NCBI GenBank assembly: GCA_050291445.1
Contig: JBNKJW010000196.1
Coordinates: 3,615-67,614, forward strand
DNA: 64,000 bases
Direction: 5' to 3'
Origin: Bacteroidales bacterium
Lineage (GTDB): Bacteria > Bacteroidota > Bacteroidia > Bacteroidales > NBLH01
This document shows positions 1 to 52,698 of this stretch, piece after piece. Below the pieces are notes generated by a model. It searched no databases, was not told the origin of the DNA, and saw only the letters and a program-made list of their open reading frames with translations. The first letter of the stretch is position 1. Each line of letters starts with the position of its first letter. The position numbers were made by a program, and so were the translations under genes.

Positions 1-71
1 TAACTTATTATTGCAACACTTTATCACTCAAAATTAATAGAAAATCACATCCCCAGCCCAGGGTTTAAATT

Positions 72-263: not shown

Positions 264-319
264 ATTATTAATGCTTTTTTCATGTGTTTTTCAAATCTAT
301 CCTTAAGGTTCTCAATGTT

Positions 320-1771: not shown

Positions 1772-2442
1772 GTTGAGTTGATTTTTATATTGTTATTTCG
1801 AAATAGTTGTTTTATATTTTGGAAATACCAGCGAAAAAACGGAGCAAAGAATACAAAGATTGTCTTTGATTTTAACTTCTATAGATACCTATTTAATTCT
1901 TATATAATTTAAAGCTAACAGCATATCCATAAAAGTCGATGTTAGTTGTAACCGTCAAAGCTTTTTTTATTCTCAAATCATCTTCTAATCCAATAATAAT
2001 ACCTTTGACTTGTTGGTTAACCTCTGCAAGTTCTTCTTGAACATATCCCATGTAGCGTTGTATCTGACCAACGACTAATATAATTTGTCCAATTATATAA
2101 AAAAAGGCCTGGATATTATTTTTGCCGCTTTATTTTTTCTTCCAGTTTTTTCAACTCTTCCATATCTTCATTATCCGCCTTTTGCATAAAGTGCAACTTT
2201 TGCTTTGCATCTGGTGTATTATAGAATATTATATTTTGTTCTGTTTTCATGTAATCGTTAATTAAAATGGCAAATCATCATCTTTGCCCTTTCCTTATCG
2301 CGACTAAAGTGCTTCTCCATGATGTTTAACAATTTTTCGCCTTACTGTCTGATGTGATGGTATTTTTGATTACCCCGAAATTTAGTTAAAACTTAGATGT
2401 ATATAAGTCTTTTCTATCTAATGGCTAAAGGTACAAAAACCA

Positions 2443-4425
2443 TTAAACAAAGCTTTGCTTTTCCATGGCTATCAACAAAATCTTAGCATGATCAAAAGCA
2501 ATTCCATCTGATTTTAGAACCATATAATTTGTTTTATCTCCGTTTTGCAGATAAATGGTTTCCTTAACTATCTCGGCAGACAGGTTTAACTGGTCGCTAA
2601 ATAATTCCAGGATGTATTCAGTACATTCAGCATCCTGGCTGCAATATTCTTTTGCAGCTTCTTTTTTGGATAGTTTAATTGAGAATAGTTGTGAATCAAT
2701 GGCATCATCTCCAAATTTAAGGTTAATATCCTCTGGCCTGGTAATACCAGTAAAGGCACAGGAAATAATCCAGCCCCGCGGATCGCGTTTTGGTTCGCTA
2801 AATACCTGTAATTGGTCAAGCTGAATTTCTGCAATTCCTGTTTCTTCCTGTAGTTCCCGGTGGGCGGTTTGCTCCACTGATTCGCCGGGGCGTACAAAGC
2901 CTCCGGGCAAAGCCCAGGCATTCATAAATGGGTGCTCGCCTCTTTTTATCATTACAAGCGAATGCCAAGACTTATTCTCCTCATTATTTTCCACAAAAAT
3001 CACAATGTCAGTGGCCATGGATGGCTGTTCAAATTCCCTGATGTTGTAGGCTTTTAAAAATTCAGCTTCACCATCAGGCTGAGTTTTGCTTTTTTCGTAA
3101 AGTTTAAGTAGTTCTTTTTTAGCCTGGTTGGAATAAAAAAGCGGAATAATGCCGTTGATGTAATCAGCTCCCCGGTTGGTCAATACTATCCTGTTACCCT
3201 GCATCTCCATTAAATCCTCTTTCAAAACAAATGCTACTTCCTCTTTAAAATGTTCGGCAAACGAAATGCCAAAGCGGTTTTGAAAAGCCTGCAAATCGAT
3301 AAAAGCAAAATAAAACGCAACCGAAACCATTTTTCCAATTGATTCTTCTACTGGTAAAGAATAAATATCCTGTATCGGAATTTCGTTGTTTTCGATTTTT
3401 TGTTTGTATTTGGCCAGTTGCTTATTAGCTGCCCCCTCGTTGTAGGCCAGGTAGTCAATTCCAAAAGACTGTGCCCCAAGTCCCATTCCGACATAAGGCA
3501 CTCCATAAATTACTCGTTTGGTCAAGTAATCGCTTGTTCCATAATCATTTTCAACCCTGCTAAAGGTGTTTTTGCCAACGTTTGCATAATACCCGTTTTC
3601 AATAAGCAGCTTGTAAGCTAATCGGTATTGACTAATAATCTTGTACAAAGAAACTCCTCCAGCTTCTTTTTCCAGCTTGGTTCCTTTATAGCGGTTCCTG
3701 TAAAGTGTGATGTATTCGGGCTTTAAGCCAATGGCATATCGAATAGTGTTTTCGAAGTCATCTTCGCTTTGGTGCAAAAAACCATACATCAGGTCAATAT
3801 TAAACATCTTGTAGCCCGCTTTGCGGATGTTGCTGGTGGCTTTTTCATAAATATGGGTAGTTCCTTCCCGTCCCAATTCATTCAACAGCTTTTCAGAAAT
3901 GGTTTGAATGCCCATGCTAATCCGTTTGTAACCCATTTTATAAACGGCTGCTATTTTATCGGGCTCGCGGGCTGCAATAATTGGTGTTGTTTCAATGCTA
4001 AAAACGGTATCTTTCTTAAAATCAAATGATTCCGTTAATGCATCGGTGATTTTTTGAAGATTTTCTATGCTGAGTTTAGTAGGAGTGCCACCACCCAAAT
4101 CATAACCAATTATGGGCTTATCTTTTATTATCGATTGATACATTTCAATTTCTTTTAGCAGCAACGAAACGTATAAATCTTCGGTATGATTTTGCACATC
4201 TTCCAAAACAGCATATTCGCAAAATTTACATCGTACCTGGCAAAATGGGATGTGTACATAAAGGCTCAGCTCTTTCGCTTTTGCCCATTCATCTTTCAAA
4301 AAATCAACATGCCTGGATTGATCTTTTAACCTGTATGCTTTAAAAGAGCCTGGTGTTAATGGATAGGCTGTGTTGGCATAATGATGGTATTGCAGACCCG
4401 TTTCGAATAGTTGTTTTGGGTTCAT
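2443..4425 (-). CDS. Fusion protein: HemN-like radical SAM enzyme (coproporphyrinogen III oxidase family) with a C-terminal NUDIX hydrolase domain
   Basis: ORF 2443..4509. The likely start is the internal ATG at 4425 (MNPKQLFETG), which removes the overlap with the upstream gene. It has the radical-SAM CxxxCxxC motif FCQVRCKFCEY and a HemN_C-like region (NRFGISFAEHF...LTNRGADYINGIIPLF). A canonical Nudix box, GGFVRPGESVEQTAHRELQEETGI, lies in the last ~190 aa. Confidence 0.8.
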   Translation of the reverse strand: MNPKQLFETGLQYHHYANTAYPLTPGSFKAYRLKDQSRHVDFLKDEWAKAKELSLYVHIPFCQVRCKFCEYAVLEDVQNHTEDLYVSLLLKEIEMYQSIIKDKPIIGYDLGGGTPTKLSIENLQKITDALTESFDFKKDTVFSIETTPIIAAREPDKIAAVYKMGYKRISMGIQTISEKLLNELGREGTTHIYEKATSNIRKAGYKMFNIDLMYGFLHQSEDDFENTIRYAIGLKPEYITLYRNRYKGTKLEKEAGGVSLYKIISQYRLAYKLLIENGYYANVGKNTFSRVENDYGTSDYLTKRVIYGVPYVGMGLGAQSFGIDYLAYNEGAANKQLAKYKQKIENNEIPIQDIYSLPVEESIGKMVSVAFYFAFIDLQAFQNRFGISFAEHFKEEVAFVLKEDLMEMQGNRIVLTNRGADYINGIIPLFYSNQAKKELLKLYEKSKTQPDGEAEFLKAYNIREFEQPSMATDIVIFVENNEENKSWHSLVMIKRGEHPFMNAWALPGGFVRPGESVEQTAHRELQEETGIAEIQLDQLQVFSEPKRDPRGWIISCAFTGITRPEDINLKFGDDAIDSQLFSIKLSKKEAAKEYCSQDAECTEYILELFSDQLNLSAEIVKETIYLQNGDKTNYMVLKSDGIAFDHAKILLIAMEKQSFV

Positions 4426-4462
4426 ATAATTTAAGCTTTTTTCAAAGTATTGTAAATGTAAT

Positions 4463-4702
4463 CTATTTATCTTCCGGCAAAGCCTCAAATTCCTTTTTCT
4501 TACTTTCAAACCATTTATTCATGGCTTCGGGCGATTCCATCATTTCCTGCATTTTATTCATTGCTTCAAGATGGGCTTTGTCTTCTTTTTTTAGCATTTT
4601 CATGCCATGTATTTTACTTAGTTTAGCCATTTCTTCAAAAGTAGGTGCATGGAATTTTACGTCGCAGGCACCGCCTAGTTGTTTGCAAGTCATTGTTTTC
4701 AT
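4463..4702 (-). CDS. DUF1059 family small protein
   Basis: 79-aa ORF. MKTMTCKQLGGACDVKFHAPTFEEMAKLSKIHGMKM matches the DUF1059 pattern (C..LG..CD..F.A.T.EE....H...H). It lies 37 bp upstream of the rSAM-Nudix start on the same strand. Confidence 0.7.
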   Translation of the reverse strand: MKTMTCKQLGGACDVKFHAPTFEEMAKLSKIHGMKMLKKEDKAHLEAMNKMQEMMESPEAMNKWFESKKKEFEALPEDK

Positions 4703-4721
4703 CGTTTATCGGTTTAAAAGT

Positions 4722-5357
4722 TTACTGAAAATAATCTGAATAGGGCTCGCATTCATTAAAATATTGTTTTGGAGACATACCGGATAGCTTGTTAAAATCG
4801 TTTATCATGTGCGATTGGTCATAGTATCCGCAACAATAGGTTAAGTTTGTAAGTGATATTTTTTTATTCTTTGATTTTTCATTAATGGCATTCTGAAACC
4901 TTACCACTTTTAAAAACTGCCTTGGAGAGGTTCCGATTAAGTTTAAAAATGTTCTTTCAAATTGCTTGCGACTTAGGCAAGCCTCCGAAGCCAAAAAAGA
5001 GATGTCTACAAACCCTTTTGTTCTATTAATCATCTGTAAGCTTTGATTAATTCGTTCAAAATTAACTTCGTATTTTCTTTTTTGCAAAAGTTTTAAAAGA
5101 TAGTTCTCTGCAATTTTTACTCTGTTTTCAAAACTGTCTGCCTCAAATAATTTTGATTCAATCTCGTCAACAAGGTTTTTTTTAATAAATTTAAGCGGAA
5201 TGTTCTGGTTGTGCAAATCATTTATTGGAATATTTAAAAACATTGATAAACCATGTGGTTGAAAAATAATGGAGAACAAACAAAGCTTTCCGGTCACTTT
5301 TATATCGTAATATTCTTTTAGCTGGCCAGTTAGTACCGCATTTTTTCTTTTCCGCAA
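4722..5357 (-). CDS. AraC-family transcriptional regulator, apparently N-terminally truncated
   Basis: 211-aa ORF starting at TTG. The C-terminus carries AraC-type HTH motifs (ISFLASEACLSRKQFERTFLNLIGTSPRQF; LTYCCGYYDQSHMINDFNKLSGMSPKQY). About 60 aa of the usual N-terminal sensor domain are missing, and an in-frame TGA lies immediately upstream at 5358-5360. Confidence 0.65.
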   Translation of the reverse strand: MRKRKNAVLTGQLKEYYDIKVTGKLCLFSIIFQPHGLSMFLNIPINDLHNQNIPLKFIKKNLVDEIESKLFEADSFENRVKIAENYLLKLLQKRKYEVNFERINQSLQMINRTKGFVDISFLASEACLSRKQFERTFLNLIGTSPRQFLKVVRFQNAINEKSKNKKISLTNLTYCCGYYDQSHMINDFNKLSGMSPKQYFNECEPYSDYFQ

Positions 5358-5458
5358 TCAATTACTTCTAAATTGATTTTCAGCAATGAGCCATAAAATT
5401 TTACTGCTTTTTCAAAATTTTCAGTTGGGATTTCAACCCATGAAATTAACTTTTTCAT
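5330..5458 (-). pseudogene. N-terminal fragment of a VOC/glyoxalase-family gene abutting the truncated AraC gene
   Basis: My own translation of the minus strand from ATG 5458 gives MKKLISWVEIPTENFEKAVKFYGSLLKINLEVIDCGKEKMRY*. This resembles the first beta-alpha-beta unit of VOC proteins. It is out of frame with, and overlaps, the AraC ORF start. Confidence 0.4.
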
Positions 5459-5578
5459 TGTTTTTGGTTTTGTTTAAAAATTACAATGCAAAAGTATTTT
5501 CCATGTGTTGGTTAAAATTGGGAAATTGCGACATTATGAAATATGGCCAAAATTTAGTGTTAGGTCAAATGCAAATTG

Positions 5579-5607
5579 CCAGGTGACAACACCTGACAAG
5601 TGCAGGG
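5579..5607. repeat. REP-like palindromic motif CCAGGTGACAACACCTGACAAGTGCAGGG (copy 1)
   Basis: CAGGTG-ACAA-CACCTG forms a 6-bp stem with a tetraloop. The same motif recurs at 12903-12929 (degenerate) and twice in inverted orientation at 52617-52666. This copy lies just 3' of the GH78-like gene. Confidence 0.6.
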
Positions 5608-5617
5608 GGCTGTTATT

Positions 5618-8032
5618 TTATTCAATTTCTATACTATTTTTCCCTTTCGAAAGTAGGTGGGATTTATTATTCCACTCCAAATGAATTTTTATATCATCTG
5701 GTACAAAAATTTCTCCGGTAAGATGTTGTCCATTCTTTTTAAGATTAATTTTTATATCTCCTTTATAATGGGGAAATACAGCCTCGATTTGATTTAATTT
5801 GTCAAATTCAGGTGCCATCTTTAGTTCCTTAAAACCAGGTGCAGTTGGTTCTATTCCACAAACCAACGACAGCATAAAATACAATGGAGATGCACTCCAT
5901 GCATGGCAATCGGAACGGGTGGTAGCCGGGTGCTTTTCGGGGAATGTTGTAAGCCCCATTTTTAGCATTTCTTCCCATTGCAATAATAAATTGAAATATA
6001 AATCGGCCCTGTTTGCTTTCTTTAAAGCCTTTGTCAGGTAGAATGTGAAATAATAGGAGCACCGGGCAAGTGTGGTATCCTGAATAATTGTGTTAATCAT
6101 TTCAACTTGTTGTGCTGCCGGGACCACATCAGCCAAAATGGCCAAAACATTGGCATGTTGACTAAAGTGCTTTCGTTCAGGAGTATCTGCAAACAAATTT
6201 CGCGATTTATCCCAACAGGTTTGCTGAACTGCACCTTTTATTTTTTTGCCCAATTCATTATAATGATTCCGCTGATCATTCATACCAAAATACTCAAACA
6301 GAAAATCAGCTTTTTTTAGGGTATACAAATATTGCATGGCAATGATTGAGGATGACTTCCCATCCATTAAAGGAGGAATTCCACTATCCCAGCCTTCACT
6401 TTCAACCCAGTCAACAAAATTCCAGAACTCAAGTTTTCCTGGCAACCCATTTTCATCAAAGCGGTGCTCAAACCATTGAAGAATATCAAGAACAGCAGGT
6501 AGTTTTGTTCTGATAAACTCATGATCGCCGCAATGCATCACATAATCATGGAGCATGGTTATCCAAATAAGCGAAAAAGTAGGGATAAATTGAGGCGAGT
6601 TACACGGGTACCGGCTTTGTGTTATTCCTATCGAATTTTTCGAATCGTAAAAATCGTTAATCGCTTTTCGCCAGAGCAGGGTATCGCCTGAAACATAATA
6701 GGTTGTCAGGCTTTGCACACGGGTGTCGCCAGTGTATTGCAATTGCTCGTAATACGGACAATCGTAAAACGATTCGCTTGCACAAAGGCGTTGGGTTCGC
6801 CATCCAACCTTCCATATTTTACTGAACATCGGGTTATTTGCATTAAAAACAGCTTTTTCTTTAAGCGGATAAGCCACAAAAAGACTGTGAAAGTTATTAA
6901 GATAAAGGTCTTCATTACCAGTTTGTATGTCGAGCTGTACGTATCTGAAACACCTCCACCAAAGTGGTTCAAAACTCCTGTTCTCACCACCATCACACGT
7001 AATCAAGTCGAAGTTGCCGTTTATCTTTTTATCTTCAACCTCGTTTCTATTTCCTTTTCTGCTGCTAATAACCTCCTCACCATCAATAATATCCGTATAA
7101 AATAAACTTTCAGCATAAGTGAGTTGTATTGCACTGTTTTTACCCTTGCTGTAGTTTAGATGCGGATAGGCATTTGTCAACACTCCGTTATCAACCAGAA
7201 TACTTACTTTGCTGTTTTTTGGAATAATTAAGCTGGATTGTTCACTAATCAGTTTATTCGCATCTGCCTTTGATACGCCGCTGACTCTTCGAACAGACTG
7301 AAATTCTTGTTTTGTGTATTCAAGGCCAGCTATATCCCTGGGGTAAAGGCACTTTTCCGGAAGCTCCCCATATTTGCCAATACTTTTTAAAGATTGTCCG
7401 TTTTCTCCTTCAACTGCGTTTTTCCATAATGGGGAATCAAACCCGGGTTCCTGCCATTTCCAGTAATGATTAAACCCATTAAATAGTTCAGCAGGGCCAG
7501 TTACGTAGTAATATTTGATGTTTTCTATCTTTTTAAATTGATAGGAGGTATCTTTTATAACCTTCCATTGGCTGTTTGTATTTAACACGTTGCTTTCTTT
7601 GGAATTCCCCTGAATAATCAGTCCGGTTTTTGATGAGTTAAAAGCCACAGGCCTTACAGTACCAAAATTCCATATTTTAACACAAATTGCATTGATGCCC
7701 TTACTCAAATAGGGTGCAATATCAATGGTTTCGTATCTCCATTTTCGAACATCCCCGAGTGCGGGCCCTAAGCAAACAAGTTTTTTATTCACATAAAGCT
7801 TGTATCGGTTATCTGCAGAAATATGGATAACGAATTTCTCCGGGATTTTTTGAACAGAAAGTTCCTTTTTGAACAAATAAACACCTTGCTGAGCACCAGT
7901 ACATTCGGGGTGAGAAATCCATTTGGCATCCCAGTTGTTTTCAAATAGTTGCTGATTATTGATTAAATTTTGTGCACTAAGGCCAAAATTTAAAAGCAGC
8001 AATGTGGCGAAAAATGAAAGGGTTTTAACCAT
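5618..8032 (-). CDS. GH78-like (alpha-L-rhamnosidase-type, six-hairpin) glycoside hydrolase, secreted
   Basis: 804-aa ORF with a signal peptide (LLLLNFGLSAQ). It has DCPYYEQLQYTGDTR and DCHAWSASPLYF motifs, typical of the rhamnosidase-type (alpha/alpha)6 catalytic domain. Confidence 0.65.
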   Translation of the reverse strand: MVKTLSFFATLLLLNFGLSAQNLINNQQLFENNWDAKWISHPECTGAQQGVYLFKKELSVQKIPEKFVIHISADNRYKLYVNKKLVCLGPALGDVRKWRYETIDIAPYLSKGINAICVKIWNFGTVRPVAFNSSKTGLIIQGNSKESNVLNTNSQWKVIKDTSYQFKKIENIKYYYVTGPAELFNGFNHYWKWQEPGFDSPLWKNAVEGENGQSLKSIGKYGELPEKCLYPRDIAGLEYTKQEFQSVRRVSGVSKADANKLISEQSSLIIPKNSKVSILVDNGVLTNAYPHLNYSKGKNSAIQLTYAESLFYTDIIDGEEVISSRKGNRNEVEDKKINGNFDLITCDGGENRSFEPLWWRCFRYVQLDIQTGNEDLYLNNFHSLFVAYPLKEKAVFNANNPMFSKIWKVGWRTQRLCASESFYDCPYYEQLQYTGDTRVQSLTTYYVSGDTLLWRKAINDFYDSKNSIGITQSRYPCNSPQFIPTFSLIWITMLHDYVMHCGDHEFIRTKLPAVLDILQWFEHRFDENGLPGKLEFWNFVDWVESEGWDSGIPPLMDGKSSSIIAMQYLYTLKKADFLFEYFGMNDQRNHYNELGKKIKGAVQQTCWDKSRNLFADTPERKHFSQHANVLAILADVVPAAQQVEMINTIIQDTTLARCSYYFTFYLTKALKKANRADLYFNLLLQWEEMLKMGLTTFPEKHPATTRSDCHAWSASPLYFMLSLVCGIEPTAPGFKELKMAPEFDKLNQIEAVFPHYKGDIKINLKKNGQHLTGEIFVPDDIKIHLEWNNKSHLLSKGKNSIEIE

Positions 8033-8296
8033 GGCTTTAAATGGGTTAGTTTTAAATCGGTGATTTTGTTGTAATCCTCAATGCTTTTTGTTTCAATAAG
8101 CTGATAATCAGTGTTGTGTTTGTGCTCTTGTTGCCAGTATATACTTCCTTTTCGCGTAAATTTTCTTGAAGCCCTCTAATAACTCCCAATGCCTCAAAAA
8201 CATCATCTTGGTCTGACCTATTTCCTCAATACACCTTATCTCTTTTATAAAAAATACACTTTCTTTAATTACATATTTGTTTGTAAAACAAGCAAA

Positions 8297-8680
8297 TTAC
8301 TCCAATAGCCTGTCAGCAGGTTCTTTTGCACCAACCTTTTTTACCAGCAAATGAAAATTGATTGAAGAATCTGGTTGGTGAACTGGCATTTCGCTCAGAA
8401 ACAAAGGTTTGTAGATAGGCATATTGTATTCGCTGAACTCTTTTGTTTCGGTAGTTGGGTTGTCTAAACCCAAAGAAGGTGCCCGCAAATACTTCTCAAC
8501 TCCTTTAGTATCCCTTTCCAGCAGCTTTTCTCTGAAACTTTCATGAAATTTTAATGTAGGAATTTCTTTGTAGCTTGTATCTATTTTAAATTCCTTGGGT
8601 TTAAATGTGCGAGGGATTTCCTGTGCTTTTATTGAAAATACCAGGCTAAAACTAAACAAAAGCGTGATTAACAGCTTCAT
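8297..8680 (-). CDS. Hypothetical secreted protein
   Basis: 127-aa ORF with an N-terminal signal peptide (LLITLLFSFSLVFSIKAQ). I recognise no family. Confidence 0.45.
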   Translation of the reverse strand: MKLLITLLFSFSLVFSIKAQEIPRTFKPKEFKIDTSYKEIPTLKFHESFREKLLERDTKGVEKYLRAPSLGLDNPTTETKEFSEYNMPIYKPLFLSEMPVHQPDSSINFHLLVKKVGAKEPADRLLE

Positions 8681-8896
8681 AACATAATTTTTAGGTTCAC
8701 ATATGCAAATATAGGTAAATTTTATTTTGGTGAAACGATTAGGCGTTTTAGGCTATTGGTTTTTATTGGCAAAGATCCCAAATTTTGTTTTTATTTTTCT
8801 CAAAAGCCAACTTTTTTCATGAGTTTTGAAATGAATTTTTAATTTGGTGGGCTACCAGGCCCTAGCAAAACCAAAAGCCACGATAGTCTTGTTGGG

Positions 8897-9844
8897 TTAT
8901 AGGTTTTGTTGGGTGGTGTTATATTCATTTTCTCTTTCGATTTCTAAAATACATTTTTCAAATTCTCTTAAGTCAGCGTATTGTAATCTTGTCAATTCCA
9001 ATTGATTAAAAAAACTACAATTATTATTAGATGCAATCTTGCGCTCACCAATAATAACAGACTTCCATGGAATTCCTAAATTATTATTAACCTGAATTAT
9101 TGCTATTTCCTGATTTTTAGAAAGGTCTTTTATAAAAACCAAGGTATATTCAACCTTCTCTTTATGATTTAAATATGGAACTCTAATTGTAATAAATGAA
9201 TTGATAAAACCATCCCAATTACTTGTAATTCTACCTCTAGTATAATTGAACCTTTTAACCCTAAAAGGATTATTTTTATTTGATTGTGGATAGAGTGTAT
9301 GAATAACCTTAGTCCCCTTATAAACTAAAAGAATATATTTCGCATTTGTATTGTCCTTATGAATATATTCACCTATATACATTTCAAAGAGATCTAGCCT
9401 TTTATTTTTTTCTATGTTTAAATTTTCTGCCTTATATACTGATTCTGCAATAATACAATAGTCAAAGAAAGGGATTGAATCTTTTCTAAAAAGTCCTTGT
9501 TTTTGTAACCTCCACTTAATATTACCATCATCATTTTTGGATTCTATCCATTTTGGTGTTGAAGTCCATTGTTCATGTCTTTGGTGAATATGTTCAAACC
9601 CAGTATACTCATTCCCTTTGGCAATTATAAGTCCAAGTTTTTGGGAAACCTTTACAATATCAACAGGGGCTTTAGCAATATTCATTAGCATAGGGTCTCT
9701 AAATTGAGGGTTCTTACCAACAAAATCTTCAATTGCATTTAATTCTTCAACTGAAAACAATATTTCATTTTCGTAATGCATAAAGTGCTCTTTTTTCTCC
9801 AAATGCCACACAATATTTGTAAAACCCCAATAAGAAATAAACAA
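8897..9844 (-). CDS. Hypothetical protein (orphan, AT-rich)
   Basis: 315-aa ORF with an alternative ATG at 9781 (MHYENEI). It has no signal peptide. It contains a GFEHIHQRHEQW motif. The codon usage is very AT-rich and the gene is flanked by >200-bp non-coding stretches. Confidence 0.5.
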   Translation of the reverse strand: MFISYWGFTNIVWHLEKKEHFMHYENEILFSVEELNAIEDFVGKNPQFRDPMLMNIAKAPVDIVKVSQKLGLIIAKGNEYTGFEHIHQRHEQWTSTPKWIESKNDDGNIKWRLQKQGLFRKDSIPFFDYCIIAESVYKAENLNIEKNKRLDLFEMYIGEYIHKDNTNAKYILLVYKGTKVIHTLYPQSNKNNPFRVKRFNYTRGRITSNWDGFINSFITIRVPYLNHKEKVEYTLVFIKDLSKNQEIAIIQVNNNLGIPWKSVIIGERKIASNNNCSFFNQLELTRLQYADLREFEKCILEIERENEYNTTQQNL

Positions 9845-10176
9845 AATTGCCTTATTGCTTTTATTTTCTCATTACTGTTTTACTCGATAAAAGTAACCTT
9901 CTGCTTTTTAATTTCCAAGGGTTGAGGTTTAATTCTACTAACAAACATAAAGCAAAACATTTGCTAAGCTCAAAAGTTTGCGAGTAAATTGGTGTTTTCT
10001 TACAGGCGCTATTTAGAATTTTGAGCTATACTATTATAAATTGTCTGCCATTTAAGCAGTTTCTGAGAAGAATCATGATTTTACAATTAATTTAGTAGCG
10101 CTAAATTCCTAATTTTAAGTTATTTTTAAAAAAGAGGCATCAGTACTCAAATTTAATCGCTAACATAACTACTACT

Positions 10177-11673
10177 ATGAGTTACATTCATTATATTACA
10201 TGTGAAACGCTGGGTTTCGACACTTTAAGAAAAATTATAAACGAAAATGCCGAAGTTCGTTTATCTAAGGAGGCCAAAGAAAAAATTATAGCTTGCCGAA
10301 AGTACCTTGATGATAAAATAGCAACAGTAGATGAGCCAATTTATGGAATTACTACTGGTTTTGGAGCTCTTCACGAGCATACTATTTCAAAAGACCAGTT
10401 GACAGAATTACAGGAAAACCTGGTTAAATCGCATGCCTGCGGAACGGGTGATGAAGCATCGCCGGAAACCATCAAGATGATGCTGTTTTTAAAGGCGCAG
10501 GCCTTATCCTACGGTCATTCGGGCGTGCAATTAGAAACTGTTGAGCGAATTTTAGACTTTTACAACAATGATATTTTACCTGTAGTATATGAACAAGGTT
10601 CTTTAGGTGCTTCGGGCGATTTGTGCCCACTTGCCCACCTGTTTTTGCCGTTAATTGGCGAAGGCGAAGTCACACATGAAGGGGTGAGGCAACCTGCAGC
10701 GGTTATTTTAAAACGTTTTGGCTGGGAACCCATCACATTGCAATCAAAAGAAGGGCTTGCCTTATTAAATGGCACCCAGTTTATGAGTGCCCATGGTGTT
10801 TTATCCTTACTAAAAGCACAACGACTGGCAAAACTGGCCGACATTATTGCCGCTGTTTCTTTGGAGGCATTTGATGGCAGGCTCGATCCATTTTTTGAAT
10901 CAATTCAACAAATCCGACCGCACAAAGGGCAAATTAAAACAGCTGAAAACTTTCGGAAAATACTGGAAGGCAGTGAGTTGATAAAACAACACAAAAAACA
11001 TGTGCAGGACCCGTATTCATTTAGGTGCATCCCACAGGTGCATGGAGCTTCAAAAGACACCATTGATTATGTGGCCTCGGTAGTTTCAACCGAAATCAAT
11101 TCCGTAACTGATAATCCGACTATTTTTCCGGAGGAAGATTTGATAGTTTCCGGAGGTAATTTTCATGGTCAGCCCCTGGCACTTGCATTTGATTTTTTAA
11201 GCATTGCCCTGGCTGAGTTAGGCAGCATTTCTGAAAGAAGGGTTTACAGGTTAATTTCAGGCTGGCGAAACCTTCCTGAGTTTTTGGTGGCAAAACCTGG
11301 TTTAAATTCTGGTTTTATGATTCCTCAGTATGCAGCTGCGTCAATTGTTAGCCAAAACAAGCAGTTTTGCACACCCTCATCGGTTGATTCTATACCTTCG
11401 TCTAATGAGCAGGAGGATCACGTAAGTATGGGAGCAAACGGGGCAACTAAATTATTACGCGTGGCCAATAACCTTGATCGCATCCTGGCAATAGAGTTGT
11501 TAAATGCTGCTCAGGCCATTGAATTCAGAAAACCGACAAAAACATCTCCTTTTTTACAGGATTTTTTGGATAAATTCAGAGAAGTGGTGCCATTTATGGA
11601 AAATGATATGGTCATGTATGAATCCATCCATAAAGCTATTGATTTTTTAAAAGAAGTAGAGATTGAATTGTAA
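10177..11673 (+). CDS. hutH: Histidine ammonia-lyase
   Basis: 498-aa ORF. It has the MIO-forming Ala-Ser-Gly motif in GSLGASGDLCPLAHL and full-length similarity in pattern to HutH (NGTQFM, SVDSIPSSNEQEDHVSMG). Confidence 0.95.
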   Translation: MSYIHYITCETLGFDTLRKIINENAEVRLSKEAKEKIIACRKYLDDKIATVDEPIYGITTGFGALHEHTISKDQLTELQENLVKSHACGTGDEASPETIKMMLFLKAQALSYGHSGVQLETVERILDFYNNDILPVVYEQGSLGASGDLCPLAHLFLPLIGEGEVTHEGVRQPAAVILKRFGWEPITLQSKEGLALLNGTQFMSAHGVLSLLKAQRLAKLADIIAAVSLEAFDGRLDPFFESIQQIRPHKGQIKTAENFRKILEGSELIKQHKKHVQDPYSFRCIPQVHGASKDTIDYVASVVSTEINSVTDNPTIFPEEDLIVSGGNFHGQPLALAFDFLSIALAELGSISERRVYRLISGWRNLPEFLVAKPGLNSGFMIPQYAAASIVSQNKQFCTPSSVDSIPSSNEQEDHVSMGANGATKLLRVANNLDRILAIELLNAAQAIEFRKPTKTSPFLQDFLDKFREVVPFMENDMVMYESIHKAIDFLKEVEIEL

Positions 11674-11749
11674 TTGGTAATTAGTATATTTGAAATTGGT
11701 ATATTGAGAAATAAACCAATACACCAATTTCTAATTTCTAATAACCGGG

Positions 11750-12868
11750 TTACCCCCTATTGTACTCTTCCAATTTCCGTTTATATCTTTCCCCAAATTG
11801 ATTCCATGCAACCAGAAACAGGCCAGTAATCATAGGCCCAATAATAAAGCCAATTAAGCCCATTAAAATCAGACCACCCATACTTGCCATAAACATAATG
11901 GCCGGGTGCATCCCACTTTTGTGCCCATCGAGTCTGGGGCGGATGATATTTTGATTAATTATGATGGCTCCGCATCCTACAGCAAGAATAATAACACCTG
12001 TAGACACATTACCTATTAATATTTGAATAATTCCCATGGGGGCAAGTATGGTGTTTGCTCCTACCAGTGGAATTATGGAAAGAAATGTCATCAGCATTCC
12101 CCAAAAAAAAGGAGAAGGAACTCCGAGTATGGCAAAGAGGGTTCCTCCAAAGGCCCCTTCAATAAAACCAAGCATAAAAGTATTAAGCACAATAGCATCG
12201 GTTACTTTTTCGAGTTTCGAGAACATTTCCCGCTCCTCTGTATCTTTTAATGGAACCAGGTATTGAATTCGCTCTACAAGTTTTTTCCCATCTATAAAAA
12301 GGTAGTAGAGTAGAAACAGCACAATGAAAAAATGAATTAAAATAACGCCAACATTAATAAATGTTTGTTGAATAAGCCCAATCAAAAATTCAACTACCAT
12401 GCTTAACTTTTCCTCCGCCTGGTTAGCCACTTTGTCCCAATCAATATCGTCAACAACGTTTTTAAGACCTGGTACCGAAGATGCTTTTTCAGGTAAATCT
12501 TCAATAAATTGCTTTAATGCAGGCCAATTGTCCTGAAAAGATCGGTAGGTGCTTCCAACCTCTTTAGAAATCATTACGGCAATAAAAGTAACCGGAATAA
12601 CAATGGTGAAAATTACCAAAACAAGGGTTACGGCGGTCGCTTTTCCTTTTTTTCCCTTGAAAACTTTCGTAAAATAGGCTAATGGCCGCTTAAAAATAAT
12701 AGCCAGAATTATCGCAAGAAAAATGTCGGTAAGGAAGGGCTGGATGATTGAGAAAAAGCCAATACTCACCCCTGCAAGAATAATGAAAAAGAATATTTCT
12801 TGTAGGTTAATCCCTGGCCTTCTGGTTGGTTTATCGTCTAATGACATGATGCGCGTTTGTTTTAGCAA
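11750..12868 (-). CDS. AI-2E family transporter (PerM/YhhT-like permease)
   Basis: 372-aa polytopic membrane ORF. The probable true start is ATG 12847 (MSLDDKP). The helix layout and the C-terminal GLIGFIIGPMITGLFLVAW segment are typical of the AI-2E family. Confidence 0.8.
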   Translation of the reverse strand: MLKQTRIMSLDDKPTRRPGINLQEIFFFIILAGVSIGFFSIIQPFLTDIFLAIILAIIFKRPLAYFTKVFKGKKGKATAVTLVLVIFTIVIPVTFIAVMISKEVGSTYRSFQDNWPALKQFIEDLPEKASSVPGLKNVVDDIDWDKVANQAEEKLSMVVEFLIGLIQQTFINVGVILIHFFIVLFLLYYLFIDGKKLVERIQYLVPLKDTEEREMFSKLEKVTDAIVLNTFMLGFIEGAFGGTLFAILGVPSPFFWGMLMTFLSIIPLVGANTILAPMGIIQILIGNVSTGVIILAVGCGAIIINQNIIRPRLDGHKSGMHPAIMFMASMGGLILMGLIGFIIGPMITGLFLVAWNQFGERYKRKLEEYNRG

Positions 12869-15619: not shown

Positions 15620-15879
15620 TTAGGGTCTGCTGAAAAAGTCAGAAGTACATTAGATACAAATTAGCAAAGCGAAGTCGTATATTAATACTTCGAGCTGAAG
15701 CTAATGAAGTAGATGATGTGCTTCTGGCTAGCCAAAGTTTCTGACGAGATTTTATTAGGTCATAAAATATAAGTACAAAGAAAAATAAGATGTTTTACCA
15801 AAACCTTGCACTTTAAACTCTGAAAAATAGTGTAAAGCGCTAGATATTAGAAGTATAAGGGTTTTTCAGCAAGCCCTAA
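15620..15879 (+). repeat. Mosaic structured repeat, copy A (terminal inverted arms + long internal hairpin)
   Basis: The arms TTAGGGTCTGCTGAAAAA (15620-15637) and TTTTTCAGCAAGCCCTAA (15862-15879) are inverted, matching 16/18. The internal hairpin is GTCAGAAGTACAT (15638-15650) with ATGTGCTTCTGGC (15716-15728). It shares an AAACCTTGCACTTT box (15801-15814) with the other copies. It starts directly after the aspA stop codon (15617-15619). Confidence 0.8.
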
Positions 15880-24497: not shown

Positions 24498-24811
24498 AGT
24501 AGTATTTTTTCGTTTATAAGGGCGACTATTTTTTTTAGAACAAATCTTTGTTTAACCTGATAAGCTCATTTAAAAATTCCATAAATTGGTTTTGCCCCCT
24601 ACTATAAATATACGAAGATAAGTGATGAATGTTTCGTGAACTCGTCAATGAAAAACGTCTGTTTGTCAAACAGGGTATGCTTTTTAGCGTGTTTGTGTGA
24701 AAAAATGTTAAGGGTGTTTAAGGGGTGTTAAAAAGTCAGAAGCCGGATGACCAAACTTTTTTTCTGGTTAATAATGATTTGTGAAATTGTGCGTTAAGCT
24801 CAGCCTTAATC

Positions 24812-25939
24812 TTAAACTTCAACATCAAAAGTATAAAATGAAACATCATCAGATTCTGGAATAAAGGTGTAGGCAAATTTATTTTTGCTTTCTAATGCAA
24901 TTTCCATTAAACCAAGTCCCATAAGGCTTGAATCATCAATGTCTTTTTTGTGGGTACCTTCTTCGTAATGTTTGCGTATCTTTTTTATGGGCATTTTTTT
25001 AATCTCATCCAACTGGGTTTTTAAACTGGTGACTTTAGTTTGTTTTATGTGGTTACCAGTTGAAATAAAATGTTTTTTACCTTGTTGGCGGATGATGAAA
25101 ATTGCCTCTTTTTCATCATTTTTTTCTAATGAATGTAAGCTAAGGTTTTGAAGGGCCTCTAAAATAATATGGAAAGTGAGTTTTTGCACATTAACCGCTT
25201 TGGATTCAATATTGTTCTCGACCATGCTAATTACCGGATCAATTACAACAGGTGAAAAGTTTCCTTTGTGCATAACAATCAGGTTTTTGGTGTAGGTTTC
25301 TTCATGAAACTCTTTTAGCCAGTCAATGTTAACATCTAGTTTAACTTTTTTTTCTTTAGCCTCTGCAGTTTTACACTTTACTTTAATTAATAAGTAAAAG
25401 TAAGAGTAGGTATCGTCAATTTCTTCAAAATCAAAGTGCAGTTTTTGGCTTGTTTTTCTTGCCATTTCAATAAAACCAAGGCCTGCACCACCTGCTTGGG
25501 TAAACTGATTGTTAGTGAGTATTTTTCGGTAAAGTTCGTTCAACTCTTTGCCATCCAGTCGGTTTACTTCTTGGAGCTTTTGGTTAACGTACTTAATTTT
25601 TTTGTTTTCAATAAGGTTCACTGAGCCAATGTAGAAAGTTCCACCAATGTTCCTTACCATAAACATTTCTTTTCGGTATCTAAATTGCTTGTTAACAGGT
25701 TCGTCGCCATACCGTATGATGTTTTGGAAGCTTTCAATCATTAAAAAGGACAACTTATGGCGTAATTTTCTAAAGTCGTTATCTTTTGATATGTTTTTTT
25801 CGATAAGGTTTATCGATGAAATCACCATGTGGTTTGACAATGCACCCATATAAACAAAAAGCAACTTGTCGTTTTTAAAGGTGTCAAAGTATTTATAGGT
25901 CAACGAAGAATCTTCCATAAGTTGGCTTGCTTTAGGCAC
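24812..25939 (-). CDS. Tandem-duplicated DUF6272 / SiaB-like histidine-kinase-type ATPase protein
   Basis: 375-aa ORF starting at GTG 25939 or ATG 25918. It has two homologous halves. Each starts with a '(L/I)V(Y/M)xGxxS...' segment and ends with a GxGLG-type ATP-lid motif (GGAGLGFIEMARKT; LMGLGLMEIALES). Confidence 0.6.
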   Translation of the reverse strand: MPKASQLMEDSSLTYKYFDTFKNDKLLFVYMGALSNHMVISSINLIEKNISKDNDFRKLRHKLSFLMIESFQNIIRYGDEPVNKQFRYRKEMFMVRNIGGTFYIGSVNLIENKKIKYVNQKLQEVNRLDGKELNELYRKILTNNQFTQAGGAGLGFIEMARKTSQKLHFDFEEIDDTYSYFYLLIKVKCKTAEAKEKKVKLDVNIDWLKEFHEETYTKNLIVMHKGNFSPVVIDPVISMVENNIESKAVNVQKLTFHIILEALQNLSLHSLEKNDEKEAIFIIRQQGKKHFISTGNHIKQTKVTSLKTQLDEIKKMPIKKIRKHYEEGTHKKDIDDSSLMGLGLMEIALESKNKFAYTFIPESDDVSFYTFDVEV

Positions 25940-26229
25940 TAAAGTAATAATTTTTTTAAAAAGATGGAAAGCCTGCCTCTATTTAAATAACTTAAAAGGT
26001 GTTTTTCTATTGCTTATCTAGGCGAAAGAAATGATAAAGCTTCAAGCAGACATGATGAAAGAGGCTAACCTGATTAATTCATAAAAATGAATGAAAACAC
26101 AGTTTAGTGCTGAATGTTATATAGATATTTGATGTGTATCGTAAGTTTTTTTAATGTTTAGGACTTGTTTACCACTAAATCTAAATATTGCGGTACTCCG
26201 TACCTTTTCAAATCACACAAACATTTAAG

Positions 26230-26381
26230 CTACAAATATTTTCGGTGCTCTGCACCTATTAAAAAAAACAGGTTCAACATTAAAAGCAGTAGAGCTCCTT
26301 TTCCGTAATACTATGAAGGAGGAGCTACGCAATATTTGTAGATTATTAATTGACAAGTGATTTAAGGTGCAGAGCACCGAA
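26230..26381. repeat. Two interleaved perfect inverted repeats (11 bp and 17 bp)
   Basis: CTACAAATATT (26230-26240) pairs with AATATTTGTAG (26331-26341). TTCGGTGCTCTGCACCT (26241-26257) pairs with AGGTGCAGAGCACCGAA (26365-26381). The two left arms are contiguous. The 11-bp right arm lies inside the 107-bp spacer of the 17-bp pair. Confidence 0.85.
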
Positions 26382-26383
26382 TA

Positions 26384-26450
26384 CCGATTTTACTTTCAAA
26401 ATAGTCCAATTTCGGCAAAGCCTCATTCGACTATTTTCAAGTAGCATCGG
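26384..26450. other. Long imperfect hairpin
   Basis: CCGATTTTACTTTCAAAATAGTC (26384-26406) pairs with GACTATTTTCAAGTAGCATCGG (26429-26450). About 19 bp pair, in blocks of 5+5+9, with a 2-nt mismatch and a 1-nt bulge. Confidence 0.6.
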
Positions 26451-26452
26451 TA

Positions 26453-26509
26453 TTTACCATTGCAATTTATATCTTGCTTTTGGACTAAAATATAAATGCA
26501 ATTGGTATA
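26453..26509. other. AT-rich imperfect hairpin
   Basis: ACCATTGCAATTTATAT (26456-26472) pairs with ATATAAATGCAATTGGT (26490-26506), with one register slip. Confidence 0.5.
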
Positions 26510-26513
26510 ACAT

Positions 26514-26805
26514 TGGGCCTGCTGAAAAAGTCAGAGGTACATTAGCTACAACTTAGCGAAGCGATATCTTCGACCAAAGGGAGAAAACTTAGCAAAGCGA
26601 AGATGTATATGAATACTTCGAGCTGAAGCTAATGAAGTAGATGATGTGCCTCTGGCTAGGATTATAATCATTAGTTTTTTGTTACTTGAAGATAAAGTTA
26701 ATGCAAGGAAAAATTACTATTTTTTTTTAAACCTTTGCACTTTCTTGCCACTTTTTTCATGTAAATATTTAATTTTAACAGGCTTAGGCGTTTTTCAGTG
26801 AGCCC
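26514..26805 (+). repeat. Mosaic structured repeat, copy B (left module as in copy A, right module as in copy C)
   Basis: The arms are GGGCCTGCTGAAAAA (26515-26529) and TTTTTCAGTGAGCCC (26791-26805). The hairpin is GTCAGAGGTACAT (26530-26542) with ATGTGCCTCTGGC (26644-26656). The right ~150 nt (26657-26805) are ~85-90 % identical by eye to 50588-50736. TAACAT occurs on both flanks (26508-26513, 26806-26811). Confidence 0.8.
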
Positions 26806-26944
26806 TAACATACTGTTTTAAGTTTTGATAGTGGTAAACAACGGCCTAAGCAATTTTTTTTAAGATTATGCGGTAGTTTACACCTTTGACTATTTTTTTT
26901 ATATAACAGATTGCCTCATCCTCGTACCTCGTTTTCGCAATGTA

Positions 26945-26986
26945 TCATTACTCGCTTCGCTCCCCGATGCTCGGGGCGGGCAATGA
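26945..26986. other. GC-rich stem-loop in an otherwise AT-rich spacer
   Basis: TCATTACTCG (26945-26954) pairs with CGGGCAATGA (26977-26986) at 9/10. This encloses the hairpin CCCCGA-TGC-TCGGGG (26962-26976). No U-tract follows on either strand. Confidence 0.55.
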
Positions 26987-27083
26987 GAGAAGTTCCGAGA
27001 AGGTACAACGAACGAACTCCAAAGGGCTCTGCGTAGCTAACCTTTTTTTATCTGGTTGCACATTCAATAAAAAAACGGTGAGG

Positions 27084-29009
27084 TTATTCACTTTCTTTAC
27101 ATTTGCATTTATTGTTTGAATTTCTGCATAAATTGGCAAAACCTGTCTGTAACCTCCTGATATAGGCTTCGAGTTGGGCGTTTTGTGCAGATAATTGAAT
27201 AATATTAAGTTGTTTACTGTCTTGTTTTATTGTTTCACGCGTTTTGTCAATCACTTCAAGTAAGTTTTTCAACTCAATGGATACCAGCTCGTTATAGGTA
27301 GATGTACTATCTGTCAACATACTTAGTTCCAGGCATTTTTTCTTTTCTAAAACATCAAACAAAACATTGATGGTTTTTTGTTTTATTTCTTCGTTTTTTA
27401 ATGTGAGCTTGTTTTTTTCATTGGCCTGGTACCTTAGGTTATAATTGTTAATTGCTTTTGAAAGCTCATCTTTACACTTTTTACAATAGGTGTTGCCCGA
27501 TTGGTTTTCTATTTTTTCTTTTTCAACCAAACCTGTTTCGTTTGTTGCAAGCTGGTTTACATTGGCAATAATGGGAGCATAAACTTTTTGATGCAATTTA
27601 TTTTCTTTGCTGTAAATTAATTGTTTTAGTTCTTTAACCAATTCACTTTTTTGTTCGTCATCTGGTATTTTAACCGAATATAACAGGCGCAGGTTGTTTT
27701 CTTCTGCTTTTGCATCCCATTTTTTGGCCAATTTCGCACTTTCAATCAGTTCTGCAACTTCTTTGATGTTGGTCAATGAGTTTTTTTCATTTAAATACAA
27801 TCCGGCGTTAGTAATTACCGATTCGTATTTGGGCAAAAATTCGTTTTCAAATTCAGGATTTCCATAGTATTGCAACATTCTTAACTGCTTTGTTTTTAGC
27901 AGGTCGCGGTATATTTTTAAAATCACAAAGTGGTTCTTTGAATAATCGTTTGTAATGTGGTTTTTTAAATTTAATTTGTAATTACTGATGTTTAGTTTTA
28001 AATCGGCAAAAATCTCCAGAAACTCAATTAATTTCAGCTCCTGATCATAAGTTGTTTTATTGATTAATTCATTCTGAAAAGCGTTTTGGATTTTTAATTT
28101 TCGCTGGTTTAAATAGTCAAAGTTAATTTGGTCACCAATCACCAATTGCGAGTTGTACCGTGATTTATAATTGGCAATTACAATCATTGGGTATTTTTTG
28201 TATCTCACCAATTTGCCTAATACTTCCTGGTTAATTTCTGGGTTCTCAGTTGTATCAACATAATATTTTAACGAGTTGGCTATAATATTCACTTTGGTCA
28301 TGGTAGAGGGGGCAAACACAAAAATGTTTACCGAGTGCAGGCGCTTGTCAAATTCCTGACCTTCGTAAAGACGGATGGTTGAGCTAAATTTATATTGCTT
28401 GCCGGTTGTTTTGCTTTCAATGTATTTTCCCAATTCGCCAATTAAATCAAGGATAGCAATATTGGGTTTTGAAAAAGTGGACAGGTTTTGTAATTGCTTG
28501 CCAATGAGTTTCAAAAATTCATTGGTGTTTTTTTTTGTAATTGCCTCACCGCTAATTTCTGCATCAATTACTTCGTTTGATTCATTCAAAGGCAGGTTAT
28601 CAATTAACCTCACCACTTCAATGTTACCGGTTTCAACGGTGGTGAAATCTTTGCCTTCAGAAACTTTGAAATTATAGATTGGGTAAACTACATCGCCGCC
28701 AAAAAACCTGAGATTCTTAATTTTTGCCTTAATAAATAAAGATTGAAGCTCTTCGCGGCCAATTTTCTTATTTTTTCGTTTCCCGCTGGAGTTTAATGAG
28801 GCTATATCGTTTAATAAATTACTGAACTTTTGTGCATTGAGTAGGTAAAGGTCGCTTGAAAGGTATTGCCACTCCTGGCTAAAGGGATAATTGCTTTTTT
28901 GCTTTAAAGCGGTGATGGTTTTAATGGTGGTTTGTGCGCTAATTTGCTGGTAAATAGTTGATAATACCGCAATACTTATTACTACAATTAAACTTTTTGC
29001 CCTTATCAT
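27084..29009 (-). CDS. Hypothetical secreted protein, Lys/Asn-rich with long predicted coiled-coil regions
   Basis: 641-aa ORF with a signal peptide (VVISIAVLSTIYQQISAQ). It has a Cys-containing C-terminus (CKKCKDEL...CRNSNNKCKCKESE). I recognise no family. Confidence 0.55.
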   Translation of the reverse strand: MIRAKSLIVVISIAVLSTIYQQISAQTTIKTITALKQKSNYPFSQEWQYLSSDLYLLNAQKFSNLLNDIASLNSSGKRKNKKIGREELQSLFIKAKIKNLRFFGGDVVYPIYNFKVSEGKDFTTVETGNIEVVRLIDNLPLNESNEVIDAEISGEAITKKNTNEFLKLIGKQLQNLSTFSKPNIAILDLIGELGKYIESKTTGKQYKFSSTIRLYEGQEFDKRLHSVNIFVFAPSTMTKVNIIANSLKYYVDTTENPEINQEVLGKLVRYKKYPMIVIANYKSRYNSQLVIGDQINFDYLNQRKLKIQNAFQNELINKTTYDQELKLIEFLEIFADLKLNISNYKLNLKNHITNDYSKNHFVILKIYRDLLKTKQLRMLQYYGNPEFENEFLPKYESVITNAGLYLNEKNSLTNIKEVAELIESAKLAKKWDAKAEENNLRLLYSVKIPDDEQKSELVKELKQLIYSKENKLHQKVYAPIIANVNQLATNETGLVEKEKIENQSGNTYCKKCKDELSKAINNYNLRYQANEKNKLTLKNEEIKQKTINVLFDVLEKKKCLELSMLTDSTSTYNELVSIELKNLLEVIDKTRETIKQDSKQLNIIQLSAQNAQLEAYIRRLQTGFANLCRNSNNKCKCKESE

Positions 29010-50122: not shown

Positions 50123-50512
50123 GTGGCCAGAAAAATACTGATAGTAGAAGATGATAAAATGTTGTGCACCATATTTGAAATGTTCCTGACAGATCTAGGA
50201 TATGAACTTACAGGCTTTTCACAGACAGGTGCTGATGCAATTAGCAAATGTGAGGAAAATCCCCCAGATGTGGTTTTGATGGATATTCACCTTAAAGGTG
50301 ATGTTGATGGAATTGATACCGCAAAAAAAATTCACGAAGCATTTAATATCCCTGTTGTTTACGTTACCAGTGATATTGAACAAGAAACTATCCTCAAAGC
50401 AATTTATAAAAACACCTACGGCTTTTTAATGAAACCTATTTATCAGTCTTCTTTAAGGGTAGCAATAGAATTTGCTTTTGCTAAACATATTTACGATAAT
50501 TCTGAAAACTGA
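50123..50512 (+). CDS. Stand-alone response regulator receiver (CheY-like) protein
   Basis: 129-aa ORF with a GTG start. It has KILIVEDD, DVVLMDIHL (phospho-acceptor Asp), PVVYVTS and a conserved Lys in LMKP. There is no output domain and no kinase gene nearby. Confidence 0.85.
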   Translation: MARKILIVEDDKMLCTIFEMFLTDLGYELTGFSQTGADAISKCEENPPDVVLMDIHLKGDVDGIDTAKKIHEAFNIPVVYVTSDIEQETILKAIYKNTYGFLMKPIYQSSLRVAIEFAFAKHIYDNSEN

Positions 50513-50739
50513 GCCCTATATCTTTGTATTAATTAAGGTCTGGGCTGCACATTTTACTGTTATTTAATATGATGCCGCTCAACTGGCTAGCATAATAATC
50601 ATTAGTTTTTTGCTACTTGAAGGTGAAGTTAATGCAAGGAAAAATTACTATTTTTTAAAACACCTTTGCACTTTTTACAACTTCTTTTATGTAAGTGTTT
50701 AATTTTAATAGGCTTAGGCGTTTTTTAGTGAGCCCTATT
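50510..50739 (+). repeat. Mosaic structured repeat, copy C, bounded by a 10-bp direct repeat
   Basis: TGAGCCCTAT occurs at 50510-50519, overlapping the regulator's TGA stop, and again at 50730-50739. The shortened closing arms are GGGCTGCAC (50542-50550) and GTGAGCCC (50729-50736). It has a CTGGCTAG box (50583-50590) and a CCTTTGCACTTT box (50664-50675). The right ~150 nt match copy B. Confidence 0.75.
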
Positions 50740-52582: not shown

Positions 52583-52616
52583 CAAATTTCTTCTAGTGTT
52601 ATGTCAAGGCTTGTTT

Positions 52617-52666
52617 GTCAGGTGACAACACCTAACAAGTGCATCAGCCAGGTGTTGTCACCTGGC
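52617..52666. repeat. Two inverted copies of the CAGGTGACAACACCTG motif forming a 17-bp hairpin
   Basis: GTCAGGTGACAACACCT (52617-52633) pairs with AGGTGTTGTCACCTGGC (52650-52666). The 15-bp core is perfect, with one wobble and one GC pair added. It lies between convergent genes. Confidence 0.8.
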
Positions 52667-52698
52667 TAATTACCAGAAATATCAAATTTGACTTAACA

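Follow-up and report, generated by a model that had tools for sequence, protein, structure and literature searches.

What fills the 1144-bp gap at positions 25940-27083 of this 64,000-nucleotide stretch of an uncultured Bacteroidales genome (hereafter the window), and what do its many inverted repeats represent? The gap is the longest between open reading frames (ORFs) of at least 100 amino acids in the window, as originally described; the next two measure 671 and 509 bp. It separates two minus-strand genes, one at 27084-29009 that encodes a 641-amino acid protein whose family was not recognised, and one at 24812-25939 that encodes a DUF6272/SiaB-like kinase, with the ATG at 25918 as a possible alternative start codon. 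The original prediction offered three candidates for the spacer without choosing among them: a large structured non-coding RNA, a stack of nested non-autonomous mobile elements, or an invertible control region. Our analysis bears out the second and speaks against the other two. The spacer is in all likelihood a lineage-specific nest of small non-autonomous transposable elements that sits between two normally adjacent genes, and as such is a case of ordinary biology.

We traced DUF6272 orthologues with 92, 88, 86, 85, and 68% amino acid identity to their contigs. In all six relatives' loci the 640/641-amino acid gene directly neighbors the kinase gene and points in the same direction, with a gap of 84-153 bp. 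DNA similarity between the spacer and these loci was found only at 25940-26030 (~76%), and alignment by eye suggests that the native homology may reach ~26047-26060. Because homology is limited to ~25940-26060 and the gaps in the relatives are short, about 1 kb of the spacer is a lineage-specific insertion. The original prediction had proposed this comparison and had named absence of the spacer from close relatives among the outcomes that would tell against both a non-coding RNA and a switch; absence of the ~1-kb block is what was found. The native spacer upstream of the kinase gene can be placed at 25919-26063 (minus strand) from its homology to the relatives' spacers, its right boundary being approximate. 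It contains a promoter-like box at plus-strand positions 25930-25957 that reads AAAAAAATTATTACTTTAGTGCCTAAAG on the minus strand. This box, AAAAAAATTATTACTTTAGTGCYTAAAG, lies just upstream of the kinase start codon and is kept in the closer relatives (85-92%); it looks like the kinase gene's own promoter. It lies outside the insertions and is intact.

The reported density of inverted repeats and hairpins was confirmed. We counted 20 inverted 10-mer pairs in the spacer compared with 2.2 +/- 1.9 (maximum 8) in 200 dinucleotide shuffles, an approximately 9-fold excess. The longest perfect inverted repeat is 17 nt, compared with at most 14 nt in the shuffles, and the spacer ranks first for inverted repeats among 1144-nt tiles of the 64-kb window. 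The individual features listed in the original prediction were recovered at or within a few bases of the places given there, including GCTTAGGC at 26782-26789 and GCCTAAGC at 26844-26851, both correctly positioned, and the words GCGGTA (26190 and 26870) and TCGGTA (26447). Folding of the whole spacer gave z-scores of -5.2 for the plus and -4.4 for the minus strand, with the excess stability limited to three parts that are described below: an array of a short motif termed M (26175-26381; z = -6.0 plus, -5.8 minus), an element termed C (26380-26510; -6.9 plus, -9.8 minus), and the 5' half of an element termed B (-5.2 plus, -3.1 minus). The small ORFs of the spacer, previously judged implausible, have no detectable protein relatives. 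Concatenated six-frame translations of B and of the remainder of the insert, with which we looked for ORFs annotated in other copies, gave nothing at E<=1 against 5.8 billion proteins. A search for tRNA and transfer-messenger RNA (tmRNA) genes found none, and distant-mode BLAST of the insert against plasmid and phage collections returned no match.

Element B occupies 26515-26805 (plus strand) in a 291-bp long form and occurs twice more in the window, both times on the plus strand: as a short form at 15624-15876, without a 36-nt apical insert and with a divergent 3' module, and as a 200-bp variant at 50536-50735 with a shortened 5' module. In the self-comparison of the window, 26514-26805 matched 15623-15731 at 92-93% and 50583-50737 at 88%. 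A 24-mer from B, searched for in one genome per species, yielded three copies in the Bacteroidales metagenome-assembled genome (MAG) JBNKRJ and one in the Marinilabiliaceae MAG JBNKRV (locus L012), which brings the number of copies to seven. Their alignment has sharp homology borders and 18-nt terminal inverted repeats, GGGCCTGCTGAAAAAG at one end and TTTTTCAGTGAGCCC at the other; GGGCCTGCTGAAAAAG and its inverted partner CTTTTTCAGTGAGCCC are conserved at the borders in all seven. The copies range from 200 to 291 bp, differ in length through the apical insert and the shortened 5' module, and contain no frame with protein homologues.

B is flanked by 6-bp target duplications of the form TAnnTA. 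The two flanks agree at all six positions in L013 (TACATA/TACATA) and L012 (TATTTA/TATTTA), at five in L011 (TAGATA/TGGATA), L014 (TAATTA/TGATTA), and the window copy at 50536 (TAATTA/TATTTA), and at four in the window copy at 15624 (TAGTTA/TAAATA). The copy in the spacer lies between exact repeats of TAACAT at 26508-26513 and 26806-26811, with one extra T and hence a 1-nt offset on the left. Flank matches of at least five of six positions thus occur in five of the seven copies, compared with a null probability of 0.011 per copy estimated from offset controls. [quoted passage not shown] Its 5' module, from 26515 to ~26660, forms a rod-like hairpin. Orientation relative to flanking genes (sense for five of the seven copies) was not significantly biased. 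No further copies were present in an added 10 kb of the source genome (L028), and a pattern for the B terminus had no matches in viral scans. Metagenome scans with an invariant 22-mer from B and with a 24-mer from the GC-rich patch discussed below returned no matches for either, and hence the collection appears not to contain this organism. Solo copies of the right-end motif of B, TGAGCCCTA, were observed at 50510-50518 of the window and at 5167-5177 of L012, 18-43 nt upstream of a B left end; earlier insertions of B at these sites may have left them behind.

Element C is a 126-bp palindromic MITE at 26382-26507 (plus strand). It combines the imperfect hairpin at 26380-26454, with arms of 21 nt at 81% and 16 nt at 88% identity (z = -9.7 plus, -9.0 minus), and the AT hairpin at 26453-26510 (z = -3.5 plus, -5.6 minus). 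C is known from two copies, the one in the spacer and one beside B in L012, where window positions 26380-26497 are matched at 93% in reverse orientation; the L012 copy consists of 5490-5607 plus 5170-5209. With B and one copy of its duplication removed from both, the two align at ~93% over 126 bp, with abrupt borders and unrelated flanks. The termini are TACCGATT and AATTGGTA, and the flanks are GAA (left) and TAA (right) in the window and exact TAA/TAA in L012. Its terminal inverted repeats, its target duplication, and its occurrence in a second context make C a second small MITE.

Both loci have B nested in C. The L012 copy of C is interrupted by B ~10 nt from its right end; there, B has the opposite relative orientation and is flanked by an exact TATTTA duplication. 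The window copy of B was inserted at TAACAT, at the very end of C. The different positions and orientations indicate that B entered the same terminus of C twice, independently. Positions 4796-6136 of L012 form another 1.3-kb ORF-free stack, in which B nested in C is accompanied by CGTC-tagged palindromes of the repetitive extragenic palindromic (REP) type (CCGTCATTACGAGG and CCTCGTCATTGCGAGCG); such nests therefore recur. We also observed an exact 17-nt match to the left terminus of C (AATACCGATTTTACTTT) on the reverse strand at 241-257 of the window, downstream of the gene at 320-1771, which may be a solo C end or may have arisen by chance (E = 0.017 within the window). A third family of small intergenic repeats, partly self-palindromic (52619-52664), is present at 52593-52698 and 5555-5604 of the window and at 7181-7285 of L012, and is thus shared with the Marinilabiliaceae MAG at 88% identity.

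The block is polymorphic among closely related strains. A ~99% identical strain (L015; Joint Genome Institute (JGI) 3300077122) lacks the 512-bp segment 26137-26648, as determined by BLAST against the window, and has a spacer of 632 bp. Its junction lies in the 7-nt microhomology TGATGTG (26130-26136 and 26642-26648) and cuts the left ends of both B and an outer element, F, that is described below. Because the junction truncates both elements on the left, and because the window copy of B is flanked by a TAACAT duplication of its own, the L015 arrangement is a secondary deletion and not the ancestral state. As a candidate ancestral short form of B, the L015 arrangement was rejected, its likeness to the 5' module of the copy at 50536 being only ~60% over ~37 nt. 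A contig of another MAG (L002) runs from the 641-amino acid gene through the right arm of F and the 3' half of B and ends at 26651, within 10 nt of the L015 deletion junction. This stop is compatible with coexistence of both alleles in that sample. For the broken assemblies, the partner contigs begin within the kinase gene and were uninformative.

These breaks raise the question of whether the arrangement is a chimera of repeat-containing reads that were joined during metagenome assembly. Of the five contigs with the 641-amino acid gene, three are 5-10 kb long, the one that was read (L002) stops in the spacer, and B and C occur elsewhere in these genomes, all of which would fit such an artefact. 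However, the window is 99.99% identical over 13.9 kb to an independent MAG contig (JBNKLL010000029 of GCA_050292335.1; L001) that contains the full 1144-bp arrangement, and L015 and L002 likewise contain both flanks and the rightmost 440 bp. In addition, the B copies are 7-12% apart, too divergent for a k=141 assembler to collapse. Reproduction in independent assemblies excludes an artefact to near certainty.

The long-range inverted-repeat pair of the spacer probably represents the termini of an outer MITE-like element, F (26155-26853), inside which C and B are nested. Its putative terminal inverted repeats are TGTTTAGGACTTGTTTACCACTA at 26155-26177 and TAGTGGTAAACAACGGCCTAAGCAA at 26829-26853; they share a 13-nt perfect core (26165-26177/26829-26841) and agree by eye at ~21 of 24 positions. 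T-run direct repeats (TTTTTTTAA) flank the element at 26146-26154 and 26855-26863. F is less well supported than B and C. Within F, positions 26176-26381 hold an array of four copies of the ~30-nt motif M, with the consensus TAAkCTAcAAATATTkkCGGTRCTCYGYACC and a core in which a 5-bp stem closes a 3-nt loop: M1 (26176-26204) and M2 (26226-26256) on the plus strand, and M3 (26315-26345) and M4 (26365-26381) on the minus strand. This array accounts for the two interleaved repeats of the original prediction, which had called both perfect. The 17-nt pair 26241-26257/26365-26381 is indeed perfect, whereas the 15-nt pair 26226-26240/26331-26345 matches at only 14 of 15 positions (93%). M2 is most similar to M3 in its first half and matches M4 exactly in its second, and M1 also matches M3; this mosaic similarity generates the inverted repeats catalogued as I1, I5, and I6 and their apparent interleaving. 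A weaker M-like copy at 26866-26885 gives rise to the third GCGGTA word. An arrangement of this kind (->-><-<-) beside terminal repeats recalls the binding-site repeats that lie subterminally at transposon ends.

Outside the window, the sole extended match to M was on an unrelated contig, IMG/VR 3300030943_000175 (L022), where three M-like motifs at 668-790 (CGGTGCnnnrCACC preceded by CTAyAAwTAT) lie downstream of an rpiB-like gene. Viral scans with a 17-mer gave four matches, three of them chance matches on GC-rich contigs and the fourth this real M-like cluster; a degenerate M pattern likewise retrieved only L022 from the viral scan. A literature search on the motif GTCATTGCGAG found irrelevant primer matches only.

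The outermost inserted block, G, spans 26064-27043 and is absent from all relatives. It comprises a left part at 26072-26145 and a right part at 26865-27035, and is bounded by a candidate 8-bp direct repeat (GCTAACCT) at 26064-26071 and 27036-27043. No Rfam, protein, or DNA match to G was found elsewhere. G includes the weaker M-like copy at 26866-26885 and the GC-rich patch in which the original prediction placed a nested stem-loop. The patch itself is present (GC content 0.535 at 26940-27040 and 0.619 at 26945-26986, compared with 0.353 for the whole window), but it folds no better than shuffled sequence (z = -0.3 and -0.5 for 26865-27045; -0.8 and -1.5 for 26865-27035). The patch was also considered as a relative of the CGTC-tagged palindromes of L012 and L019 and rejected, local alignment being at shuffle level. 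Directly 3' of the stop codon of the 641-amino acid gene, 27040-27083 (minus strand) forms an A/T-rich hairpin, ACCTTTTTTTAT paired with ATAAAAAAACGGT (z = -1.3 and -1.7), which may be the native 3' end or terminator of that gene, although this assignment is uncertain. A simple terminator scan found no intrinsic-terminator-like site.

We infer the following order of events. The ~260-bp block G, carrying the GC-rich patch, would have entered ~40 bp after the stop codon of the 641-amino acid gene. F, with its 24-nt terminal inverted repeats and four subterminal M copies, would then have landed in a T-run inside G, followed by insertion of the 126-bp palindromic C near the right end of F and of the 291-bp B at TAACAT, right at the right terminus of C. 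Finally, in one strain, a 512-bp microhomology deletion would have taken out the left portions of F and B together with all intervening sequence. Each element would have been moved in trans by a transposase encoded elsewhere, and on this account the hairpins and inverted repeats are element termini and internal palindromes, not one folded RNA.

Several observations weigh against this account. An empty site was seen only for the whole block, and for none of the single elements. No cognate transposase was identified, and no recombinase or transposase domain was detected in ORFs of at least 100 amino acids at 320-47915 of the window (~20 kb on either side of the spacer). The T-run duplication of F is a low-complexity homopolymer, and on the right side it is offset by 1-2 nt from the terminal repeat. 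A search of the window, 28 fetched loci, and viral contigs, covering ~75 kb of the source genome, ~27 kb of the two B-carrying MAGs, and the relatives' loci, found no second copy of F, and an F-terminus pattern had no matches in viral scans. G has no terminal inverted repeats discernible by eye, its 8-bp direct repeat could be due to chance, no other copy was found in the same ~75 kb, the two B-carrying MAGs, or the relatives' loci, and a viral scan with the GC-rich patch returned nothing. F and G are thus both single-copy in the DNA searched, and their mobility is presumed from their end structure. Lastly, the 5' hairpin of B folds better on the plus strand (z = -5.2 compared with -3.1), with G-U pairs and one compensatory pair. 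This predicted strand bias leaves some room for an RNA-level role of B. The compensatory pair, found among six copies, was equalled in 93 of 500 shuffles, and the covariation is not significant.

How, then, do the other candidates fare? In an invertible (phase-variable) control region, the 24-nt or the 17-nt pair would serve as recombinase sites, and a promoter or terminator that lies upstream of the kinase gene would be inverted between them. The two pairs (26155-26177/26829-26853 and 26241-26257/26365-26381) do have suitable length and spacing and lie upstream of a gene, the ->-><-<- order of the M motifs could reflect protein-binding sites, and several assemblies break within the spacer. 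The resemblance extends to the invertible promoters of Bacteroidales (the fin regions at capsule and fimbrial loci), in which 17-24-nt inverted repeats flank 100-650 bp upstream of a gene. Unlike those promoters, the spacer has no recombinase gene nearby, although a recombinase acting in trans would escape our domain screen, and its interior consists of dispersed MITE copies in a block that is not conserved in relatives. Four assemblies (the window, L001, L002, and L015) have one and the same orientation for the parts present, which is a weak test because these are assemblies and not reads. Moreover, L015 lacks the entire left arm, and L002 passes the right arm and stops near the deletion junction, not at the arm. 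We consider such a switch improbable. Much the same holds for a broader version, in which F and M together would form a protein-recognised device upstream of the kinase gene, either inverting as a two-site, flip-excision (FLEx)-like switch or binding a regulator, with B drawn to the palindromic DNA and carrying a strand-specific rod-like RNA hairpin; we regard this as a long shot.

A large structured non-coding RNA, or several, with the hairpins as RNA helices, would account for the strongly negative folding z-scores at 26155-26381, at 26380-26510, and in the 5' module of B, and for the plus-strand bias, G-U pairs, and single compensatory change of the latter. However, M and C are stable to a similar extent on both strands, as expected for DNA palindromes, to which we attribute the excess stability, and the GC-rich patch and the covariation in B are at shuffle level. 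The search against Rfam 15 models that had been suggested returned no match in the whole window at gathering thresholds and none at E<=1 over 25700-27400. With conservation confined to ~99% identical strains, one of which tolerates the 512-bp deletion, a structured RNA is very improbable. The nest might instead have been co-opted after its mobile origin, so that the hairpin stack now acts as an insulator, a terminator, or an mRNA-stability element that uncouples the 641-amino acid gene from the kinase gene. Such a role would suit several very stable hairpins in a block placed between co-directional genes that are 84-153 bp apart in relatives. However, the promoter-like box immediately upstream of the kinase gene, which the closer relatives share, suggests that the genes probably already had separate promoters, the scan for intrinsic terminators was negative, and the sister strain does without half of the stack. 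Co-option thus appears unlikely, and we infer a nest that has acquired no function.

Read as a nest of transposable elements, the spacer can be compared with known systems. Like bacterial MITEs such as those of Porphyromonas gingivalis and the Correia elements of Neisseria, B and C are short (126-291 bp), lack ORFs, have terminal inverted repeats and short duplications (6-bp TAnnTA for B, ~3-bp TAA for C), and occur between genes in several copies across related genomes, with length variants of B that arise from internal indels. Unlike these, B and C match nothing in plasmid and phage collections or Rfam, a parent insertion sequence was not identified, and their copy number was sampled from few loci. 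B and C are new members of this well-known class. Insertion sequences that target repetitive palindromes are also known, namely IS1397/ISKpn1 and the IS110/IS621 group, which insert into REP sequences and bacterial interspersed mosaic elements (BIMEs); a 2006 study by Tobes and Pareja is said to concern such elements. That B has entered the last ~15 nt of palindromic C twice independently, in two genomes, is reminiscent of this behavior. On the other hand, the other five copies of B lie outside C, only two events are at hand, and their positions and orientations differ; the preference may simply reflect a TAnnTA target in AT-rich hairpin DNA. M in turn recalls REP, BIME, and REPIN (REP doublet forming hairpin) sequences in having a short palindromic core, GGTGC-nnn-GCACC, outside genes, and in occurring as neighboring direct and inverted copies able to fold into larger hairpins. 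REP sequences are defined as high-copy extragenic palindromes that are 20-40 bp long and lie next to a GTAG or CGTC tag (PMC3733652). M is present in four to five copies in ~75 kb of genome, all of them in the spacer, and its CTAC tag lies 10-11 nt from a 13-nt palindrome; with a low copy number and a tag that is not adjacent, M is not a REP sequence by this definition.

Some features of the surrounding DNA were noted in passing. In contrast to the 1.1-kb spacer, the spacer between the kinase gene and the gene for a 582-amino acid L,D-transpeptidase (24498-24732) is shared at 79-85% DNA identity over 157-240 nt with relatives whose proteins are ~85-92% identical, and may be a conserved leader or regulatory region. 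Synteny breaks at ~20275 of the window between ~99% identical strains (compare 15668-15882 of L015 and 5265-5479 of L026): following a vWA gene, the window and L001 encode an S8 peptidase with a Por secretion tail, and L015 and L026 contain Cu-oxidase_4, RecX, and RDD genes. In GCA_050292335.1 the left end of the window (1-11771; L028) lies on JBNKLL010000005 and the spacer on JBNKLL010000029, so the window assembly is more contiguous than that MAG.

The hairpin-dense 1.1-kb gap of this uncultured Bacteroidales bacterium is thus most likely transposon debris and not a new RNA or switch. This has no bearing on any long-standing open question; its value is for annotation. B and C represent two previously undescribed MITE families with defined ends and target sites, which allows them to be masked in related MAGs, whose assemblies they evidently break. 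That B inserted independently at the terminus of C on two occasions suggests a preference for palindromic AT-rich DNA, which may explain how such nests grow.

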